A stretch of 55,893 bases of DNA from a virus. Its lineage: Duplodnaviria; Caudoviricetes. The stretch is from positions 1-55,893 of the IMG/VR virus record IMGVR_UViG_3300044630_003363. One strand, given 5' to 3'. The notes below the pieces were generated by a model that was given only the letters and a program-made list of their open reading frames with translations, did not search any database and was not told where the DNA came from. A program made the translations under genes and the position numbers. Each line of letters begins with the position of its first letter. Position 1 is the first letter of the stretch. Positions 4,912-42,386 of this stretch are shown here, in pieces.

Positions 4912-6390
4912 ATGAATAGTCAAAATATACTTAAATTTTGGGGTACACAAATGGATTTGAAGATTGATTCTTCAGAATATCATGATTATGAGGTATCCAA
5001 AACAGAATCGGATTACAATTCTGATGTGTTAAATATTAACACCACAATTAATTATTCTGGTTTAAGTGTAAACACCACAGGATTAACAAATGCGGATTGT
5101 GTTAGAAATACAATATCTTTAAATGAATTTGACAATACGGTTAATGACCCAACATATCCATATTCAGCATATACATGGACATTATCATATAGTGGTTTTA
5201 CCAACCAATTAAGTAATTCTGATACTATTTTAAAAAATGATGTTTATGAATTTATTAATAGTAGTGGTCAGACTCATTATTTTATTGAAAATGGATATAA
5301 TAATGCACTTTCAAATCCGTTTTCTTTAAATGTTACAGGATTTACAACGGGTTCTACCGTTGATTGTACTTTACAATTTTCAGGAACAGGGATAACGACA
5401 ACCATTTGTTGTCCAAGAGACCCAATTCCATCAGCAAAACCATGGGCGTACCAAATTAACCATGGTGCTGGTGTTAATAATTGTGATTATTCAGTTAAAA
5501 GAAGAACAGAAAAAGGATGGACAATTGATTTTGTTTTAAATAAGGATTCTCTCCCATGGTCTGACGGTAATGTCATATACTATCTTGGGGTTAGGAATGA
5601 ATCTGATATAGAGGATTACGCAGATAATAACTTATCTTTCTCATTTACTGATGATGGTAGACTTAAATGGACATCAATTCATTATTCGGGTATATGTAAT
5701 ACCTTATCGGGATACACGGAATCATATTATATTGCATCAGGACAAACATTACCATTATGTAATAATGGAACAAGTGATGATTTTAATATTACAATAACAT
5801 TTGATAGATACAGTAGATATACTGATTGTAATCTTGAAAATGATGGGGGTTGGAATGATTTAATTCCCGGAGTTAAGGTAATTCCATATGTACCAGAATC
5901 TGGTAGTTCAGTAACTTCAACACAAACCACAATTTATACTGAGGTTGAGGAATTAAATAAAAAATGGGCTGACGAGAAAGAAAGAAGATTAGGTATTTTA
6001 AAAATTTATTTAAACGGTAGACCAATATATAAATTAAAAGATTGGGAGGAAATAATTCCATCTGATAGAGGAGAACAACCTTTTATACAGTCATGGGGTT
6101 CAGGTACTCAATATGCCGGTGGTGTACATAATATGGGTACATCGTGTTTTAATTTTAAACAAATTCAATTTTATGAACAACCTTTAGATTTTGTACATGT
6201 TAGACACCATTATCTATCTGAAATAAAACCAAACTTTAATATTGTTGAGTGTAATGTGAACTGTGTTGACTCTGTTGTGGGGATTATTAATGTTACGCCA
6301 ACTCCTACTCCTACACCAACAAGAACCATCACACCAACACCAACAATATCGGTAACACCTACCTTTACACCAACACCAAGTACTTCGTAA
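4912..6390 (+). CDS. Putative virion structural protein; possible lectin/LamG-like C-terminal beta domain and Pro/Thr tail
   Basis: Ser/Thr/Gly/Asn-rich; LKIYLNG...IQFYEQPL segment reminiscent of LamG; terminal (TP)n. Confidence 0.55.
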   Translation: MNSQNILKFWGTQMDLKIDSSEYHDYEVSKTESDYNSDVLNINTTINYSGLSVNTTGLTNADCVRNTISLNEFDNTVNDPTYPYSAYTWTLSYSGFTNQLSNSDTILKNDVYEFINSSGQTHYFIENGYNNALSNPFSLNVTGFTTGSTVDCTLQFSGTGITTTICCPRDPIPSAKPWAYQINHGAGVNNCDYSVKRRTEKGWTIDFVLNKDSLPWSDGNVIYYLGVRNESDIEDYADNNLSFSFTDDGRLKWTSIHYSGICNTLSGYTESYYIASGQTLPLCNNGTSDDFNITITFDRYSRYTDCNLENDGGWNDLIPGVKVIPYVPESGSSVTSTQTTIYTEVEELNKKWADEKERRLGILKIYLNGRPIYKLKDWEEIIPSDRGEQPFIQSWGSGTQYAGGVHNMGTSCFNFKQIQFYEQPLDFVHVRHHYLSEIKPNFNIVECNVNCVDSVVGIINVTPTPTPTPTRTITPTPTISVTPTFTPTPSTS

Positions 6391-7355: not shown

Positions 7356-7724
7356 ATGGAATTTTTTATTAGACAAGGAGCATCAGAACCAATCTTAAAA
7401 TTAAGATTAATAGACGACGGTAAAAACGATAAGTCTGGATTTAACGATGCACTTGAAAATTGTGATATCACATTTGAAATGTTTAATATTGAAAATGATG
7501 AGTATGAGATATTAAATTCAACATGTCAAATCACAACAAGGGATAAAAAATACGACCAAACAACTGATGAATATTATATTGTTCATAGATTTACTGAAGC
7601 TCAAACTGCAAACATAGGAAAATACGAGGGAAAGGTAACAGTTCAATTCTTAGATACCAATCTAAATCCTACAACAAAACTGATTTTACCCGTTAAGGAA
7701 AAATTATTTATCACCATATTTTGA
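7356..7724 (+). CDS. Small structural protein, BppU N-terminal-like beta sandwich
   Basis: FFIRQGASEPILKLRL...TANIGKYEGKVTVQF pattern; late motif 4 nt upstream. Confidence 0.5.
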   Translation: MEFFIRQGASEPILKLRLIDDGKNDKSGFNDALENCDITFEMFNIENDEYEILNSTCQITTRDKKYDQTTDEYYIVHRFTEAQTANIGKYEGKVTVQFLDTNLNPTTKLILPVKEKLFITIF

Positions 7725-7752
7725 TAATCAAATTTTTTTCTGTATATTTTTG
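7720..7752 (+). promoter_or_regulatory. Putative host-sigma (Bacteroidota-type -33/-7) promoter for DNA polymerase
   Basis: TTTG at 7720, 19-nt spacer, TATATTTT(TG) at 7743; resembles TTTG-N19-21-TAnnTTTG. Confidence 0.45.
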
Positions 7753-7791
7753 ACAAGACTAATTACGGAATGTCCGTAAGCTAATGTGTCA
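7751..7791 (+). promoter_or_regulatory. Structured 5' leader of the polymerase gene
   Basis: TTACGGA-ATG-TCCGTAA hairpin (7763-7779) enclosed by TGACA/TGTCA. Confidence 0.5.
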
Positions 7792-7808
7792 CTTAAAAAA
7801 TATACATA

Positions 7809-10706
7809 ATGAAAGAAATTATTTCGCAAGAAGTTATTGAAAACTTCTTAAATGGTTGGGACCCTGAAGAATACATAGTAGGGGTTGAGTATGATTACCG
7901 AACCAACAAAATCTACAAAGTTATCCAAGACCCGGAAAGGGGTAAAATCGTTAAACCTGACACCTTCACACCATTTTTATGGGTTGGTGACCTAACTGAA
8001 TTTAATTTTTACCAAAGTAACAAAACACTCCAAAAGAAAAAAATGGGTGAATATGGTATCATAATTGAAAAATTAAGAACGGAAGGGAATACTCGATTAG
8101 AAAATGGACAAACTTTTTTGGTTAAAAGTTTAAAAGGGTATACTGAATTAATCAATTTTTTTAAAGAGGGTGGAATTGACCCATGGGGTGATAAATTTAA
8201 ATCGTCTTTTACGATATTAAACCCTGTTGAACAGTATCTTATACAGAAAAAGAAAAGACTTTTTAAAGGTATTGAAGATTATTCCGGCGTTAATAGATTT
8301 GTATTCGATATCGAGACCACGGGTTTAGACCCATTAACCTGTAATATTATATTGATAGGTGTTAAGGATAACCGTGGTTTGGAAAAAACAATACCAGCAT
8401 TTGGTGAAGATGGTGAAAAGAAGTGTATTGAGGAATTTTTCAAAATAATTAAAGAAAAGAAACCTACAATTATTGGTGGTTATAACTCCGCATTTTTTGA
8501 TTGGCCATTTATTTTAAAACGAGCCGAGATATTGGGTGTTAATACTAAGGAATTAACTCAAATATTTACAAAACAAGGAATTAGAGAGAAAAAAGGTATG
8601 TTGAAACTTGCAAACGAGCAGGAAGATTACATTCAACATAACATATGGGGATTCAATATTATTGATATTGCACATTCTGTTCGTAGAGCTCAAGCAATTA
8701 ATTCCGAAATTAAATCTTGGGGTTTGAAATATATTACCAAGTACTTAGAAAAAGAAAAACCTAATCGTGTTTATGTGGATGGTGCTCGGATTTCAAAAAT
8801 ATATTTGGATAATGAATTATATTATGTAAATCCAAAAACAGGTAACTACAAGAAAATTGGTGAGCCGGGAACAGGTGATTTGTTGGAGAAATATCCGGGT
8901 AAATTTGAAATATGGTCAGGAAGTAAAATTGTTGAACAATATCTTGATGATGACTTGTATGAAACCATGGTAGTTGATGACTCTTTTAGTCAATCGACAT
9001 TTTTGATTTCAAAACTTGTACCAACAACATATGAGAGAATCGCAACAATGGGTACAGCTACTTTGTGGAAAATCATTATGTTGGCTTGGTCATATGAAAA
9101 CAATTTAGCCGTTCCTGCAAAAGATACTAAACGACCATTCACAGGTGGTTTATCTCGTTTATTAACTGTGGGTTACGCTAAGAACATTGTTAAGTTTGAC
9201 TATTCGTCACTTTATCCATCAATACAATTAGTGTATGATATTTTCCCTGATTGTGATATTATGGGTGTACAGAAATCGATGTTGAAGTATTTCCGTAATA
9301 TTCGTATAAAATATAAACATTTGGCTGGTGAACTAAAAGATAGTGACCCAGTTCAAGCGGAAATGTACGACCGTAAACAATTACCAATTAAAATCTTTAT
9401 TAACGCTTACTTTGGTTCATTATCTGCACCACATGTATTCCCATGGGGTGAAATGGATTCGGGTGAAACAATCACATGTATTGGTCGTCAATGTCTTCGT
9501 ATGATGATTATGTTCTTTGAAAATAAAGGATATAAACCACTTGTAATGGATACGGACGGTGTAAACTTTGAGACACCTGAAAATATTAATGATACAGTTT
9601 ATGTTGGTAAAGGGTATAACGAGTTGGTTATTGAAGGTAAAGAATATAAAGGAATTGAAGCCGATACCGCAGAATTCAATGACATCTTCATGAGAAATGA
9701 AATGGGTCTTGATATCGACTACACCGCACCGGCTTGTATTAATGTATCAAGAAAAAACTACATCATTAAATTGATGAAGAAAGGAAAAGAAAAAATCAAA
9801 TTAACGGGTAATACCATTAAGTCTAAAAAACTACAACAATATATTGTTGAATTCTTGGACGAAGGATTTAAATACCTATTAAATGGTGACGGTATATCGT
9901 TTGTTGAATTGTATTTCCAATATGTGGAGAAGATTTATAATAAACAAATTCCATTATCAAAAATAGCAAACAAATCCCGTGTTAAACAATCTGTTGAGGA
10001 TTATAAGAAACACATACAGAAAGTAACAAAGGCGGGTTCATTAATGTCAAGACAAGCTCATATGGAGTTGATTTTACAGAATAACTATAATGCTGGTCTT
10101 GGTGAAACAATCTATTATATTAATAATGGTACCAAAAAATCTTCGGGAGATGTTCAGAAAATAAGTAAACCAACGAAAAAACAATTAGAGGAATATTTTA
10201 TTAAAAATGGTAAATCAATGCCAAATGATTATTTAGAAATTAGTTGTTATATGATTTCTGAAAAAGAATTAAATGAAAACCCCAATATGACAGGAGACTA
10301 TAATGTACCAAGGTATTTGGGTAATTTTAATAAACGCATTGAACCTTTATTAGTTGTGTTTAGTCCTGAAATTCGTAATGATATTTTAGTTGAGAGACCA
10401 GAAGATAGACAATACTTTACAAGTAAACAATGTGAATTGGTTAATGGTTTTCCATTAAGTGAAGATGGTCAGGATAAATACGATGAGGTAATGACACTAT
10501 CGGATAGTGAAGTTATTTTTTGGAATAAAATTAAACGCGACCCATTCTTTATGTATGTAGACAATAGTATTGAATTAGTTGATAAATATTGGGTTGATTA
10601 CAACCGTAAAGTTTTATCGTCTGAAGAAAAAAGTACCGTTAGTAATGAAGATGAGATAATTAAAACAGATAATGTTGATTATGCTTATCATGTGGTGGAA
10701 AGTTAA
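7809..10706 (+). CDS. polB: Family B DNA polymerase with 3'-5' exonuclease
   Basis: ExoI FDIETTG, ExoII GYNSAFFDWPFI, motif A DYSSLYPS, motif B KIFINAYFG, motif C MDTDG. Confidence 0.97.
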   Translation: MKEIISQEVIENFLNGWDPEEYIVGVEYDYRTNKIYKVIQDPERGKIVKPDTFTPFLWVGDLTEFNFYQSNKTLQKKKMGEYGIIIEKLRTEGNTRLENGQTFLVKSLKGYTELINFFKEGGIDPWGDKFKSSFTILNPVEQYLIQKKKRLFKGIEDYSGVNRFVFDIETTGLDPLTCNIILIGVKDNRGLEKTIPAFGEDGEKKCIEEFFKIIKEKKPTIIGGYNSAFFDWPFILKRAEILGVNTKELTQIFTKQGIREKKGMLKLANEQEDYIQHNIWGFNIIDIAHSVRRAQAINSEIKSWGLKYITKYLEKEKPNRVYVDGARISKIYLDNELYYVNPKTGNYKKIGEPGTGDLLEKYPGKFEIWSGSKIVEQYLDDDLYETMVVDDSFSQSTFLISKLVPTTYERIATMGTATLWKIIMLAWSYENNLAVPAKDTKRPFTGGLSRLLTVGYAKNIVKFDYSSLYPSIQLVYDIFPDCDIMGVQKSMLKYFRNIRIKYKHLAGELKDSDPVQAEMYDRKQLPIKIFINAYFGSLSAPHVFPWGEMDSGETITCIGRQCLRMMIMFFENKGYKPLVMDTDGVNFETPENINDTVYVGKGYNELVIEGKEYKGIEADTAEFNDIFMRNEMGLDIDYTAPACINVSRKNYIIKLMKKGKEKIKLTGNTIKSKKLQQYIVEFLDEGFKYLLNGDGISFVELYFQYVEKIYNKQIPLSKIANKSRVKQSVEDYKKHIQKVTKAGSLMSRQAHMELILQNNYNAGLGETIYYINNGTKKSSGDVQKISKPTKKQLEEYFIKNGKSMPNDYLEISCYMISEKELNENPNMTGDYNVPRYLGNFNKRIEPLLVVFSPEIRNDILVERPEDRQYFTSKQCELVNGFPLSEDGQDKYDEVMTLSDSEVIFWNKIKRDPFFMYVDNSIELVDKYWVDYNRKVLSSEEKSTVSNEDEIIKTDNVDYAYHVVES

Positions 10707-17142: not shown

Positions 17143-17319
17143 TTAATCTCCGTAGATATCTTTTTTCTTTGGTATTTCTATGGATTTATCTTCTTTACAA
17201 GTTTCATCAATCCACTTCTGAACAATTTTATAAATTTTTAATCCTTTTTTATCGCAATATTCTTTTAACATCTTGTGATGTTTCTCACTAACCTTAATGT
17301 TTTTGGTGGTATTCTCCAT
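17143..17319 (-). CDS. 58-aa ribbon-helix-helix-like DNA-binding protein (not in the ORF track)
   Basis: MENTTKNIKVSEKHHKMLKEYCDKKGLKIYKIVQKWIDETCKEDKSIEIPKKKDIYGD; TATTTATC motif 6 nt upstream. Confidence 0.7.
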   Translation of the reverse strand: MENTTKNIKVSEKHHKMLKEYCDKKGLKIYKIVQKWIDETCKEDKSIEIPKKKDIYGD

Positions 17320-17454: not shown

Positions 17455-20289
17455 ATGGCAAATTCAAATAGAGTATTTGTATCTCCTGGTGTATATACAT
17501 CAGAAAAAGATTTATCATTCGTAGCACAAAGTGTTGGGGTGAGTACATTGGGGTTAGTGGGGGAAACTTTAAGAGGTCCCGCTTTCGAACCAATTTTAAT
17601 AACAGATTTCGATTCATTCAAATTATATTTTGGGGGAACATCACCGGAAAAAGACGGTAATAATAATCCAAAATATGAACTACCTTATGTTGCAAAAGCG
17701 TATCTTCAAGAATCAAATCAACTATTTGTTACAAGAGTTCTTGGATTAACAGGATATAAACCAGTTAAAACATTTGCGATTAAAACAATCGGTGGTGTTG
17801 AGGTTGGAGGATTAAGTGGAACCACAACGGGAACTACAATCCCATCAACAACAGGTATTACAGGTAGTACTTTCTACACTTTCTTATCAGATAAGAAAGC
17901 TTACGACGGAAATACCATTACTGATTATATGGTAACATTCTATAGTGGTTTTACATCAGGTAATACCGGTAATTGGTTTGTTTTGGGTAATGTACCATTT
18001 TCAGGAACATCGGGTTTAACAGGTACTGAAGTCATTTCACCATTAACAGGTTTAAATAACGCAGATAACTATAATTCAAAAGAGTGGTATAATACATTAG
18101 TTAATACGGCTGGTACAGAAGTTTATTCATTCGTATTCGTTTACAATAGTGGTACAAGTCTATTTGATGTAACAAGATATACATATAGTGCTACCACATA
18201 TAGTGATTATGATGAACAAGTTGTTGCATCATTTAGGTCAAGAGGTTCATATGTTGGTCAAACTTTAAATTTAGAAGTTACAGGAAATACTAACTTTAAT
18301 ATTTCGGGTTCGGATTTAGTGGTTAACCCATTATCTGAATTTACAATCAATGTAACGGGAGCAACAAGTGGAGCAAAAACATTTACATGTAGTTTAGATA
18401 CTACATCATCAAAATATGTTACTAAAGTATTGGGTGTTGATGTATTTGATAAATCAAAAGGAGATATTCCGATTTATGTTTATGAATCTTATCCAAAATA
18501 TTTACTACAAGCTTTTCAACAAGGTTACATTAGAGGTATCAGTTTAACTGAAGTTTACAACTCAGAGGGTACTAACTTCTTAACGGAATGGGATACACCG
18601 ATGTCACCAACAGTTGTTTCTGAAGTTAGAGGTGGTAATGTTGCAGATTTATTTGAAATAATTACAATTTCTGACGGTGAAGACGCTAACACACAACTTA
18701 AAATTTCAATTATTAATATTAATGTTGATACATACGAATTCGATATGTTAGTTCGTGAATACTATGATACCGATGATAACATGGTTGTTCTTGAAAAATT
18801 CACAAGATGTTCAATGAATCCAGATGTTCCGGGATATATTGCTAAAAAAGTGGGTACATCTGATGGTGAATATGAATTGAATTCAAAATACATTATGTTG
18901 AATATGTCTAATAACCACCCAACAGATGCATACCCAGCAGGTTTTAAAGGATTTGTAAATAACTCAAACTTTGGTGGAACAACTTTAGGTTCTGTAATGT
19001 ATAAAACTGATTATTATGTGGCTGGTGATACTACAGGTTATAACTCTGACGGTTCACCAATTTCATCTTCGGGAGATAAAATTAGAAAAGTATGTTTAGG
19101 TTTCTCAACTCAAACGGGTTATGATGACGATTTGTTAAAATATAAAGGTAAAGCGGCACTTAATACAACTAAAGGTTTCCACTTATCAACAAACGCATCT
19201 ACAATCACAGGTACAACATATATAACAACACCTTATGATTTAGAAGGTCAACCAGCAGGTAGTGTAATAAGTGATATCAACTATCGTAAATTTACATTAG
19301 CATTATGTGGTGGATTTGATGGTTGGGATATCTACAGAAATATAAGAACTTATGGAGACAATTATATCTTCGGTAAGAAAACTTATGTTTCAGGTAACAC
19401 AACTAATGGTGGTGTGTTTAGTATAGCGGCAGGAAATAGTGATTATTACGCATATGTTAGAGGTATTGATACTTTTGGAAATCCTGAAGCAGTTGATATT
19501 AACATATTTGCAACTCCTGGTATTAACTTCTACGACCACAGTTCACTAACTTCTTATTCAATCGATATGGTTGAACAAGATAGAGCGGATTCACTTTATA
19601 TAATTGGTTCACCAAATTATAGTACGGTTGATGAGGTAGTTGATGCATTAGATGGTGTGGCAATGGATACAAACTATTCAGCCACTTATTTCCCTTGGAT
19701 TCAAGTTAGGGATGTGGATAACGCAACTCAACTTTATATTCCACCAACAGGTGAGGTTGTAAGAAATATAGCATTAACTGATAATGTATCGTTCCCATGG
19801 TTCGCAGTAGCGGGTTATTCAAGAGGTTTAGTGAAATCAATCAAAGCGGTTAAGAAACTAACACTTGATGAAAGAGATGAACTTTACAAAAATAGAATCA
19901 ATCCAATTGCTACTTTCTCTGATACAGGTACAATTATTTGGGGTAATAAAACTCTACAAGTAAGAGAATCTGCACTTGATAGAATAAATGTAAGAAGATT
20001 ATTATTAAGAGCAAGAAAATTAATTTCAGCGGTAGCGGTTAGATTAATATTTGAACAAAATGACGAAGAGGTTCGTAACGAGTTCTTGAGGTTAGTAAAT
20101 CCGATATTGGACGCGATTAAGAGAGAAAGAGGTCTTTATGATTTCCGTGTAACGGTTTCAAGTGACCCAGCTGATATAGATGCAAATACAATGAGAGGTA
20201 AAATATTTATTAAACCTACTCGTTCACTTGAATTTATTGATGTTGAGTTCGTAATAACACCAACAGGAGCTTCATTTGACAATATTTAA
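17455..20289 (+). CDS. Contractile tail sheath protein (gp18-like)
   Basis: FVSPGVYTSEKDLS N-terminus; PWFAVAGYSRG, RINPI, WGNKTL, RINVRRLL, IKPTRSLEFI. Confidence 0.97.
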   Translation: MANSNRVFVSPGVYTSEKDLSFVAQSVGVSTLGLVGETLRGPAFEPILITDFDSFKLYFGGTSPEKDGNNNPKYELPYVAKAYLQESNQLFVTRVLGLTGYKPVKTFAIKTIGGVEVGGLSGTTTGTTIPSTTGITGSTFYTFLSDKKAYDGNTITDYMVTFYSGFTSGNTGNWFVLGNVPFSGTSGLTGTEVISPLTGLNNADNYNSKEWYNTLVNTAGTEVYSFVFVYNSGTSLFDVTRYTYSATTYSDYDEQVVASFRSRGSYVGQTLNLEVTGNTNFNISGSDLVVNPLSEFTINVTGATSGAKTFTCSLDTTSSKYVTKVLGVDVFDKSKGDIPIYVYESYPKYLLQAFQQGYIRGISLTEVYNSEGTNFLTEWDTPMSPTVVSEVRGGNVADLFEIITISDGEDANTQLKISIININVDTYEFDMLVREYYDTDDNMVVLEKFTRCSMNPDVPGYIAKKVGTSDGEYELNSKYIMLNMSNNHPTDAYPAGFKGFVNNSNFGGTTLGSVMYKTDYYVAGDTTGYNSDGSPISSSGDKIRKVCLGFSTQTGYDDDLLKYKGKAALNTTKGFHLSTNASTITGTTYITTPYDLEGQPAGSVISDINYRKFTLALCGGFDGWDIYRNIRTYGDNYIFGKKTYVSGNTTNGGVFSIAAGNSDYYAYVRGIDTFGNPEAVDINIFATPGINFYDHSSLTSYSIDMVEQDRADSLYIIGSPNYSTVDEVVDALDGVAMDTNYSATYFPWIQVRDVDNATQLYIPPTGEVVRNIALTDNVSFPWFAVAGYSRGLVKSIKAVKKLTLDERDELYKNRINPIATFSDTGTIIWGNKTLQVRESALDRINVRRLLLRARKLISAVAVRLIFEQNDEEVRNEFLRLVNPILDAIKRERGLYDFRVTVSSDPADIDANTMRGKIFIKPTRSLEFIDVEFVITPTGASFDNI

Positions 20290-20301
20290 TAAAAAAATAA
20301 A

Positions 20302-20325
20302 TGGGAAGGTGTAAAATCCTTCCCA
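20302..20325 (+). terminator. Hairpin after the sheath gene (terminator or processing stem)
   Basis: TGGGAAGG-N8-CCTTCCCA; A-tract on the 5' side, weak U-tract on +. Confidence 0.6.
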
Positions 20326-20332
20326 ACTTATA

Positions 20333-20348
20333 TGTTTCACGAGAAACA
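20333..20348. promoter_or_regulatory. parS-like site TGTTTCACGAGAAACA
   Basis: 15/16 identity to the palindromic consensus TGTTTCACGTGAAACA; intergenic. Confidence 0.65.
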
Positions 20349-20380
20349 AAAAAAGTATAAAAAATATAAAATTATAATAC

Positions 20381-20490
20381 CCAGTATATATGCTCCAGTA
20401 TACTAGAACTAGTATTTTATTATCTAGTATTTTAATATCTAGTTTTAATAAACTAGTTAAAGAATTTCTAGTACTAGATACTAGTATAGT
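20381..20490. repeat. Array of CTAG/CCAG-TA core repeats with about 15-bp phasing (candidate origin iterons)
   Basis: CTAG at 20403, 20409, 20424, 20439, 20453, 20468, 20474, 20481; palindrome TCTAGTACTAGA at 20467-20478. Confidence 0.75.
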
Positions 20491-20607
20491 GAAAAAATAC
20501 GAAAAATATTTGACATTATCAAGTATTTCGTAAAAATAAATTATTTTTCAATAAGAGTATATTTATAGGTAAGGTAAATAAAAAAAAATTAAAAACAAAA
20601 AATAGAC

Positions 20608-21096
20608 ATGGCAGATTTATTAATGAAAATGCCGGTTCCATACGAACCGAAAAGAGTTAACCGTTTCATACTAAGATTTCCCTCTTCATTGGGTATCAAC
20701 GAATGGTATGTAGCATCAACGGCAAGACCAAGCGCAAAAATCAATTCAGTAGCAATACCGTTCATTAACACATCAACTTATGTTGCTGGTAGATTCGAAT
20801 GGAATGAACTAAGAGTAACATTTAAAGACCCAATTGGACCTTCAGCGTCACAAGCGTTGATGGAATGGTTCCGTTTACACGCGGAGTCAGTAACGGGTCG
20901 TATGGGTTACGCAGCGGGTTATAAGAAAGACATTGAATTAGAAATGTTAGACCCAACGGGAGTTGTGGTTGAAAAATGGATTCTTCAAGGTACATTCTTA
21001 ACTGATTTGAACTTCAACGAACTTGATTATTCGAGAGATGACATTGCAACTATCACAGCGTCTTTACGTATGGATAGATGTATTCAAGTTTACTAA
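20608..21096 (+). CDS. Tail tube protein (gp19-like)
   Basis: EPKRVNRFIL, YVAGRFEW, GYAAGYKKDIELEMLDPTGVVVEKWILQG; follows the sheath. Confidence 0.93.
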   Translation: MADLLMKMPVPYEPKRVNRFILRFPSSLGINEWYVASTARPSAKINSVAIPFINTSTYVAGRFEWNELRVTFKDPIGPSASQALMEWFRLHAESVTGRMGYAAGYKKDIELEMLDPTGVVVEKWILQGTFLTDLNFNELDYSRDDIATITASLRMDRCIQVY

Positions 21097-41006: not shown

Positions 41007-42386
41007 ATGACAGAAAAGAACTTTGGTTTTCTCGGAGCATCATTCCAACAAGCCCTAATACGAGCAATTATTGAAGACAAAAAATATGGGGAACAAATAA
41101 TTGATGTAATCGATAGCAAGTACTTTGATAACAATTCCTTTAGATTTATTATTCAGAACATTAAGGAACATTTTATAAAATATACTAAAATTCCTAATTA
41201 TGACACATTGTCTCAACAGATTGTGTTAGAGTTAAAATCGCAAGAAAATGCAAGAATACATTTGGATACAATATCCGGTATTAAGGAAAACACTCAGGAT
41301 TCGTCTCTCGTAAAGGATGAGGCTTTAAATTTTTGTAAACAACAAAATTTAAAAAAGGAGTTAAAAAGGGTAAATCAAATAATTGACAACGGCTCCTTTC
41401 AAGAATATAATACCATTGAAGGTATTATTCAAAAGGCAATGCAGGTTGGATTACCACCCGAAGAATCTATGGATGTGTTTCATAACATTGATGAGGCGTT
41501 AGAGAAGGACAACAGACACCCAATCCCAACAGGAATTGATGGATTAGATGGTATGTTAAAAGGAGGGTTAGGTAGAGGTGAATTAGGGGTTGTTTTAGCA
41601 CCGACAGGTACAGGTAAGACAACACTATTAACACTTTTTTCAAATACCGCATATAACTATAATTTTAATGTTCTTCAAATATTTTTTGAAGATAATCCAG
41701 CAAACATCAAAAGAAAACATTACACAATTTGGTCAGGTATTGAACCAGATGAACAACCAAACAACAAAGATGAAGTAAAACAAAGAGTTGAAGAGGTTAG
41801 GTCTAAATGTACCGGTTCTTTGAGTATTATTAAATTACCAAGTGATTCTGTTACTATTTCTGAAATTAAAACAAGAATTAGAAAACATATTTCTGATGGT
41901 AAAAAGATTGACTTATTGGTTATTGACTATGTTGATTGTATAACATCAGAAAGGTCAACTAATGGTGAAGAATGGAAAGGTGAGGGTTCAACTATGAGAA
42001 GTCTTGAATCGATGACTAGTGAATTTGATATTGCAATATGGACAGCAACTCAAGGTAATAGAGAGTCAATTTCTTCGGAAGTTGTTACAACAGACCAAAT
42101 GGGTGGCTCAATCAAAAAGGCACAAATCGGTCATGTTGTTTTATCGGTTGGTAAGACATTAGAACAAAAAGAACATAACCTAGCAACTATGACTTTATTA
42201 AAGTCAAGAATTGGACAAGATGGTGTTATTTGGCAGAACTGTACATTTGATAATAGATTTCTAATTATTAATACAGAATCTCAAAGTACATTATTGGGAC
42301 ATAAGGAAGATGTTCAAAAGGACAACGCAACACGAGCTAAAGATGCGTTTATAAAAAGACAAAAGGTCTTGAATCGTGAAAATTAA
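41007..42386 (+). CDS. dnaB: Replicative DNA helicase (DnaB/gp41-like)
   Basis: IPTGIDGLD, APTGTGKT, LVIDYVD, WTATQGNR, LLKSRIG. Confidence 0.95.
   Translation: MTEKNFGFLGASFQQALIRAIIEDKKYGEQIIDVIDSKYFDNNSFRFIIQNIKEHFIKYTKIPNYDTLSQQIVLELKSQENARIHLDTISGIKENTQDSSLVKDEALNFCKQQNLKKELKRVNQIIDNGSFQEYNTIEGIIQKAMQVGLPPEESMDVFHNIDEALEKDNRHPIPTGIDGLDGMLKGGLGRGELGVVLAPTGTGKTTLLTLFSNTAYNYNFNVLQIFFEDNPANIKRKHYTIWSGIEPDEQPNNKDEVKQRVEEVRSKCTGSLSIIKLPSDSVTISEIKTRIRKHISDGKKIDLLVIDYVDCITSERSTNGEEWKGEGSTMRSLESMTSEFDIAIWTATQGNRESISSEVVTTDQMGGSIKKAQIGHVVLSVGKTLEQKEHNLATMTLLKSRIGQDGVIWQNCTFDNRFLIINTESQSTLLGHKEDVQKDNATRAKDAFIKRQKVLNREN

Follow-up and report, generated by a model that had tools for sequence, protein, structure and literature searches.

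The parS/ParB system is usually viewed as a property of chromosomes and plasmids, in which the carrier of the site also carries the genes. Phage genomes with centromere-type partition sites include those of the plasmid prophages P1, P7 and N15, which have their own ParA/ParB or SopA/SopB proteins and their own site sequences. ParB-family proteins can also be global regulators, as at the KorB-OB operators of IncP plasmids, where the protein is encoded by the element and acts at many operators. Finally, Lin and Grossman reportedly found in 1998 that an unstable plasmid was stabilized by an inserted chromosomal parS acting through the host Spo0J/Soj proteins.

The DNA analyzed here (the window) is a whole IMG/VR record of 55,893 bp that CheckV rates as 17% complete. 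It has a T4-like myovirus gene set of ~31% G+C that encodes sheath, tube, baseplate hub, gp25-like and gp6-like wedge proteins together with a family B polymerase, gp32, UvsX, DnaB and ribonucleotide reductase, and it is a fragment of a T4-like jumbo phage of ~300 kb. A palindrome resembling parS lies between its sheath and tube genes. The chromosomal site of ParB (Spo0J) has the consensus TGTTNCACGTGNAACA; the consensus of the palindrome in this phage family is an exact match to a parS variant that is clustered in Bacteroidota and other phyla, and the window copy has the parS arms and one perfect half. In contrast to chromosomal parS, the phage has a single site, no origin-proximal cluster and no cognate parAB, and the centre of the window copy is broken. 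Like P1, P7 and N15 the phage family has a centromere-type site, but neither Par protein was found. The plasmid of Lin and Grossman, a par-less replicon using host ParB via one chromosomal-type parS, represents the mechanism we propose for the phage, although that plasmid was a laboratory construct in Bacillus subtilis, whereas the phage case would be natural and would involve a T4-like lytic gene set. As in the KorB systems, a ParB-type clamp loaded at a promoter-near palindrome could regulate transcription; unlike those plasmids, the phage has no such gene and one site only.

Imperfect parS sites have precedents. P. aeruginosa ParB binds lone GTTCCAC and GTTTCAC heptamers genome-wide with no need for spreading (PMC10419367). 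These heptamers equal the invariant part of the phage element, but the P. aeruginosa half-sites are dispersed, number in the hundreds and are bound without spreading, whereas the phage has one conserved site with a recognisable second half. Natural parS sites of Caulobacter have one conserved half and imperfect sites are still bound at low nM (PMC5815017). Consensus parS and the Noc site differ only at half-site positions 1 and 6 (PMC7383237). In those terms, the T to A change at position 10 of the window copy falls at position 6 of the right half-site, a parS/Noc discriminator.

The parS-like site and the sheath-tube gap

The features of the region are collected in Table 1. An earlier note made from the window sequence had described a site one mismatch from consensus parS, the only one in the window, in one of the largest non-coding gaps and followed by an AT-rich tract and a repeat array. 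All of this was borne out. The palindrome differs from TGTTTCACGTGAAACA solely in having A instead of T at position 10, and no other sequence in the window comes within two mismatches of that consensus. It lies 44 nt past the sheath stop codon and 7 nt past the terminator in a 318-nt gap (20290-20607) that is among the four largest of the window, and both the AT box and the array follow it.

Table 1 Features of the sheath-tube region, in window positions
Feature	Position	Strand	Remarks
58-aa ORF	17143..17319	-	Divergent from, and just upstream of, the sheath gene
Tail sheath gene, 944 aa	17455..20289	+	phrog_23, E 2.5e-58
Terminator-like hairpin TGGGAAGG-N8-CCTTCCCA	20302..20325	+	3' of the sheath gene
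parS-like palindrome TGTTTC-ACGA-GAAACA = TGTTTCACGAGAAACA	20333..20348	.	Centre-mutated member of the family palindrome, consensus TGTTCCACGTGGAACA
Intact half-site GTTTCAC	20334..20340	+	Left half, the part conserved across relatives
AT box, inverted repeat TATAA...TTATA	20356..20376	.	Conserved 5-8 nt past the palindrome in relatives; spacer 3-12 nt
Repeat array starting at CCCAGTAT	20380..20488	.	Eight CTAG at ~15 nt spacing; unique in the complete relative
Conserved box TACGAAAAAT and palindrome TTGACATTATCAA (family form TTGAYAnnRTCAA)	20498..20522	.	Single copy in the complete relative
GTATATTTATAGG, a copy of the TATTTATA motif	20557..20569	+	Likely late promoter of the tube gene
Tail tube gene, 162 aa	20608..21096	+	phrog_4542, E 3.8e-23
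Hairpin CGGTTC-CATAC-GAACCG	20632..20650	-	Within the first tube-gene codons; minus-strand terminator in the scan

When three mismatches were allowed the window gave one further match, at 19386 within the sheath gene, and 11 of 100 shuffled sequences had two or more matches at that threshold. From base composition, 0.00096 sites with one mismatch or none are expected per window, which over a scan of ~250,000 windows amounts to ~240 chance cases. Hence, the parS match alone is not significant and the evidence that counts is comparative. The window copy has at least one intact half-site of the form GTT[TC]CAC, and its ACGA centre places it outside the natural parS range TGTT[TC]CACGTG[AG]AACA, within which the family consensus falls. 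An intrinsic terminator would have a G+C-rich stem and a T-run; the palindrome has two G-C pairs in six and is followed by A's, and the terminator scan called the preceding hairpin and not the palindrome.

The half-parS heptamer GTTYCAC is found 20 times in the window, 15 times on the minus strand, versus 13.1 expected, and 2 of 100 shuffled sequences reached 20. Looser searches for a dispersed operator were unproductive and this candidate was rejected: GTTYCNNNNGRAAC gave 10 loose matches versus 6.1 expected and TATAAAAAWTATAA gave 20 versus 21.1.

The gap is a composite of several elements, the order of which is common to relatives even where the sequence has diverged. The comparison included 21 relatives obtained via the sheath protein and 80 of at least 567 obtained via a tube-protein alignment, and in these relatives the palindrome is always found behind a terminator-like hairpin of the kind given in Table 1. 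The tetranucleotide CTAG is otherwise depleted in the window (48 versus 89.6 expected), and eight of the 48 occurrences are packed into the 82 nt of 20403-20484 with spacings of 6, 15, 15, 14, 15, 6 and 7 nt. The complete relative G006 has a single CTAG array, a single TACGAAAA box with its palindrome and a single parS-like site, and the sheath-tube gap contains all of them. The array (period ~15-16 nt), the TACGAAAA box and the TTGAYAnnRTCAA palindrome thereby form a single-copy, family-conserved cis region (20380-20522 of the window and, in locus L245, 59252-59410 of G006), although the number and type of the array units differ by clade (CTAG, CTGG/CCAG, TTAGTA or GGTCC/GGACC). In sequence the array region resembles iterons to which a DNA-binding protein that co-evolves with them would bind; it is possibly an origin, a packaging site or the control region of the tube gene. 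In the complete relative, GC skew tracks the direction of the genes and gives the gap no distinctive signal.

The TATTTATA motif, often in the form [AC]TATTTATA[GA], stands 10-50 nt ahead of many plus-strand structural genes, those starting at 4912, 7356, 17455, 20608, 22124, 24090, 35517 and 47312 being examples. The motif presumably corresponds to the T4 late-promoter box read on the opposite strand, and probably serves this phage family as its late promoter. A 47-aa ORF within the gap (20390-20533) matches no family and was rejected as a gene; it is unlikely to be coding because relatives have insertions of ~16-nt repeat units there. The arms of the hairpin in the first codons of the tube gene are similar to those of the parS-like palindrome.

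Upstream of the sheath gene, each of the 19 relatives whose sequence extends over this locus, the complete genome among them, keeps the 58-aa ORF at 53-100% identity. The ORF product gave weak matches to ribbon-helix-helix proteins (RepB-RCR_reg, E 0.005; ParG, E 0.014; PDB ParG 1p94, E 0.015), whereas its AlphaFold model was of low confidence (pLDDT 65.8) and contained only two helices. By sequence the protein is a candidate binder of one of the gap repeats. Most genes of these phages belong to no known family. A search of 50,697 cultured-phage DNA records with the sheath-tube region gave no matches; in protein searches the closest tube proteins, from Microcystis, Flavobacterium and Rhodothermus phages, were 36-41% identical.

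Conservation and variation of the palindrome in related phages

The window and 101 other loci were examined. Exclusion of 7 loci lacking a tube start, 12 lacking a recognisable sheath end within 520 nt and 16 duplicate gaps left 67 distinct sheath-tube gaps, of which 43 contain a site with three or fewer mismatches to TGTTYCACGTGRAACA, located 32-66 nt past the sheath stop. The best match per gap had no mismatch in 2 cases, one in 14, two in 19, three in 8, and four or more in 24. Eight of these last 24 gaps comprise one clade, the members of which have a site with three or fewer mismatches 40-90 nt past the tube gene (529-577 nt past its ATG), behind the terminator of that gene. The sequences thus indicate that in this clade the palindrome was moved and yet kept. 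The remaining 16 of the 67 have no site anywhere in the locus. Contigs G131-G133, G136 and G137 of this site-less group, the contigs of which are 7-59% complete, gave no match with two or fewer mismatches, and in G130 the sole match at that threshold is a twice-repeated and unrelated sequence with two mismatches. The earlier note had proposed conservation at the sheath-tube junction of relatives as a check. The 43 gaps and the eight relocated sites answer in its favour, but the 16 loci that lack the site and its loss in a close relative of the window answer against it.

The consensus of 40 distinct copies is TGTTCCACGTGGAACA. The left half is strongly kept (positions 1-8: T33 G39 T30 T40 C35 C39 A39 C40) and the right half is weaker (G29/A11 at position 9, T26/A11 at position 10 and A18/C18/G4 at position 16), with CACGTG intact in only 16 of the 40. 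Such an asymmetry is odd for a site that a symmetric dimer would read. On a tree of the flanking coding DNA the ACGT-centred form appears in many deep clades, and at least four losses are needed. The arms co-vary: the covariation score is 0.116 versus 0.079 in shuffles (none of 500 reached it) and six cells are changed in both arms versus 2.1 in shuffles (2 of 500 reached six), although the signal was absent when only the first 10 sequences were used. The adjoining terminators diverge freely between lineages while the letters of the palindrome stay, which indicates recognition by a protein rather than structure alone.

Relative G006 (310,542 bp with terminal repeats, 100% complete) has one exact copy of the palindrome. 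Exact copies of the family consensus are also present in loci L033-L035, L037 and L095. At three mismatches G006 has two further matches, one of which (28901) is inside an ORF; this match and that at 41402 of G008, also inside an ORF, were dismissed. A conserved position under selection is seen family-wide (43 plus 8 of 67), unlike the situation in the window's own clade.

That clade has nine members and six versions of the site: TGTTTC-ACGA-GAAACA, TGTTCC-ACGG-GGAACA, TGTTCC-ACAA-GAAACA, TGTTCC-ACGG-GAAACA, TGTTCC-ACGA-GAAACA and TGTTTC-CCGT-GAAACA. Within the clade 5 of the 16 columns of the site vary versus 77 of the 302 columns in the rest of the gap (Fisher p 0.40), and the 40 nt on either side are less variable (12 of 80 columns). 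In the close relative L028 the site is lost except for its first letters. Together, the gap-like variation, the six versions and the L028 loss suggest relaxed selection on the site in this clade. The strongest of the alternative explanations is that the ancestral palindrome worked, the window's clade no longer needs it, and the likeness to parS is a remnant of a decaying site. Whole clades without the site are in keeping with this, as is the finding that every clade version destroys CACGTG. This hexamer is absent from the window (3.83 expected, Poisson 0.022) and from three homologous contigs, hinting at avoidance of an enzyme. It was counted 6 times in 491 kb of genomes with broken centres, 46 times in 990 kb of genomes with intact centres (site excluded) and 19 times in 798 kb of genomes lacking the site. 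Avoidance of a CACGTG-specific restriction enzyme may possibly have broken the centre, but the statistic, naively p 0.0003, becomes weak (p 0.01-0.26, with or without G006) when the four homologous contigs are counted once. Moreover, the exact 16-mer of the window recurs with different flanks in two other lineages (L049/L050 and L097/L101), which disfavors random decay, and the left half and both arms are intact. We therefore regard decay as unlikely, though it is an explanation to be taken seriously.

Bacterial parS sites, the probable host and the reader of the palindrome

When 185,579 bacterial species genomes were scanned, the exact TGTTCCACGTGGAACA 16-mer was present in at least 138 stretches from many phyla, often as 2-5 copies within a few kb (Chitinophaga solisilvae, an Algibacter MAG, Chitinophagales, Planctomycetota and Acidobacteriaceae). 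In five Bacteroidota genomes picked from these matches, all sites with one mismatch or none fell into a single cluster (5/5, 2/2, 3/3, 2/2 and 2/2) and each genome encodes one canonical ParB. We also sampled 101 genomes from the phylum of Flavobacterium soli (Bacteroidota). Of these, 81 contained TGTTYCACNNGRAACA, for which a reversed control gave almost no matches, and both the TTTC/GAAA and the TTCC/GGAA arm types were present. Among the 150 of 290 matches listed from these genomes, sites less than 5 kb apart have a GT centre with a single exception (in G056, where a site with an ACAT centre has a canonical site 1.9 kb away), sites with other centres stand by themselves, and no ACGA centre was seen, either clustered or solitary. 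Such genome comparisons identify TGTTCCACGTGGAACA, the family consensus, as a true variant of chromosomal parS.

Bacteroidota are also the probable hosts. Phages G007 and G009 (tube proteins 94% identical, site perfect) each carry a gene for a 654-aa protein that has a C-terminal sorting domain of the type IX secretion system (T9SS; 38.9 bits, cut-off 27), located at 8348-8581 in G007 and 7706-7939 in G009. To our knowledge this sorting signal is essentially confined to Bacteroidota, and the phage protein is apparently built for export by the Bacteroidota-specific secretion system of the host. A Shine-Dalgarno core precedes only 2 of 28 window genes, which fits the same phylum. A CRISPR link to a host was sought by BLAST of 20 kb against 401 Bacteroidota genomes; of the 17 short matches, six were examined and none of these lay in a repeat array.

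The earlier note had reported no parA or parB in the window, which is ~17% of the genome, and had advised a search for phage copies; we found none in the window or beyond it. ParB_N gave no match above the cut-off in 10 records (the window, five related fragments and four large relatives including the complete 310-kb genome), and neither HTH_ParB nor the ParA-type AAA_31 domain was found in the five records searched for each. Thus, no parA or parB of a self-encoded parA-parB-parS cassette was present in the records searched. A sub-threshold ParB_N match was discarded upon being traced to a conserved 251-aa protein having a DGQHR motif and a GmrSD_N-like (ParB/Srx-fold) N-terminal domain (958-1713 on the minus strand of L103 and 239941-240654 of G006). 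This protein is the sole ParB-fold protein seen in these phages and is without the ParB HTH. Given that ParB, its HTH domain and ParA were not found in the phages, complete genome included, host ParB is the only known class of reader for the sequence.

A reader of another class must nonetheless be weighed. Asymmetric conservation would suit a protein other than ParB. The palindrome could be the operator of another dimeric DNA-binding protein, of the phage or a different host factor, in the control region of the tube gene, with its identity to parS being convergence. It sits in a unique multi-part cis region with the AT inverted repeat, the CTAG array, the TTGAYAnnRTCAA palindrome and the late-promoter motif, the phages have many genes without known families from which such a protein could come, and the conserved 58-aa protein with its weak ribbon-helix-helix matches is encoded upstream of the sheath gene. 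However, a consensus that agrees at 16 of 16 positions with the parS clustered in genomes of the likely host phylum is very unlikely to have arisen by convergence. The palindrome also relocates behind the tube gene independently of the rest of the region, and hence is not tied to the array, and it is not repeated at other promoters (the 10 loose matches in the window noted above, a single copy in G006). We consider such an operator improbable.

The weakest alternative, in which the site would form a hairpin as RNA (or single-strand DNA) and act at the 3' end of the sheath or tube transcript as a back-up terminator or stability element, draws on the constant place directly behind a terminator in both positions, the co-varying arms, the variable last two loop bases, the T-run after the site in many relatives, the fold of the site and its flanks (-5 kcal/mol, z -2.6) and RNA-library contigs that span the site, but is quite improbable given that the sequence and not structure alone is kept beside freely changing terminators, the first two loop bases are almost invariant, the loop is a palindromic ACGT in most deep clades, the stem is just 5-6 bp, A's rather than T's follow the site in the window, and no Rfam family was found (two matches for 20200-20700, far below gathering scores). 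The strong fold of the region as a whole is due mainly to the terminator. The metatranscriptome contigs cross the terminator and the site in two of four runs (X15, 20217-20470 and 20461-20566; X16, 20232-20384), although DNA carry-over into these libraries is possible and contigs cannot show transcript ends; the gap was uncovered in runs X17 and X19, which were not counted as evidence. A DNA site is favored over RNA by the conserved letters, by the match to parS and by a centre that is palindromic in most clades, whereas the constant place behind terminators and the T-runs of many relatives leave a small probability for a hairpin role.

Proposed host ParB docking and its possible consequences

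The reading that we favor is that the family element serves to dock host ParB and that the window copy still allows at least docking of the half-site kind; we put this at somewhat below an even chance. The window site would be a centre-mutated copy of a single-copy, sequence-specific palindrome that a family of ~300-kb T4-like jumbo phages keeps directly behind the sheath-gene terminator or, in one clade, behind the tube gene. Since the phages encode no ParB, ParB-type HTH or ParA that we could find, the most likely reader would be the chromosomal ParB of the host. A ParB dimer is expected to dock on the palindrome, and on perfect copies ParB would close as a CTP clamp and spread onto the phage DNA. 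Through such spreading the phage genome might become linked to host ParA/SMC, or the host origin might be deprived of ParB. In the window the left half is intact and the right half is changed at half-site position 6; hence, weaker docking of the half-site type would be expected there, perhaps without clamp loading.

The earlier note had proposed that the phage borrows the host ParABS/SMC system to position, segregate or protect its genome or titrates host ParB, and this interpretation is partly supported. The conserved junction site, a consensus that equals parS of the likely host phylum and the failure to find phage ParA or ParB stand on its side; the broken centre of the window copy, the lack of slower evolution in its clade and the losses elsewhere do not. 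Stated in full, the proposal is that freshwater jumbo phages of ~300 kb, probably infecting Bacteroidota, keep one orphan host parS behind a late-gene terminator on which host ParB-CTP clamps, and thereby ParA or SMC, would be loaded, either to position, compact or partition the phage DNA or to strip ParB from the host origin. In this complete form we hold it only tentatively. The phage is found in lakes, with at least 73% of the window present in 14 DNA runs.

The exact TGTTCCACGTGGAACA sequence was also found in at least 121 viral contigs, versus 3 for the reversed letters. Of the 80 of these contigs taken as loci (L246-L325), two belong to this phage family, and 63 of the 80 copies are inside open frames. 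Several are directly behind terminators (L247, L249, L285 and L297) and some are paired (L264, L301 and L324). ParB_N was not found in the 24 longest of these viral records, 11 of which are at least 90% complete. The recurrence of the same terminator-plus-parS module in unrelated phage contigs without ParB means that an orphan parS could be a general, undescribed way for phages to enter and use the host segregation machinery. Our literature searches found no description of a phage that relies on host ParB via a chromosomal-type parS, and it is unusual that a family of phages lacking par genes should conserve a single palindrome of the host parS type.

If the proposal is true, the segregation and condensin-loading machinery of the host would be used or sabotaged by phages that lack par genes and have a T4-like lytic gene set. 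The natural variants of the site (perfect, centre-mutated, relocated and lost) constitute a ready-made mutant series.
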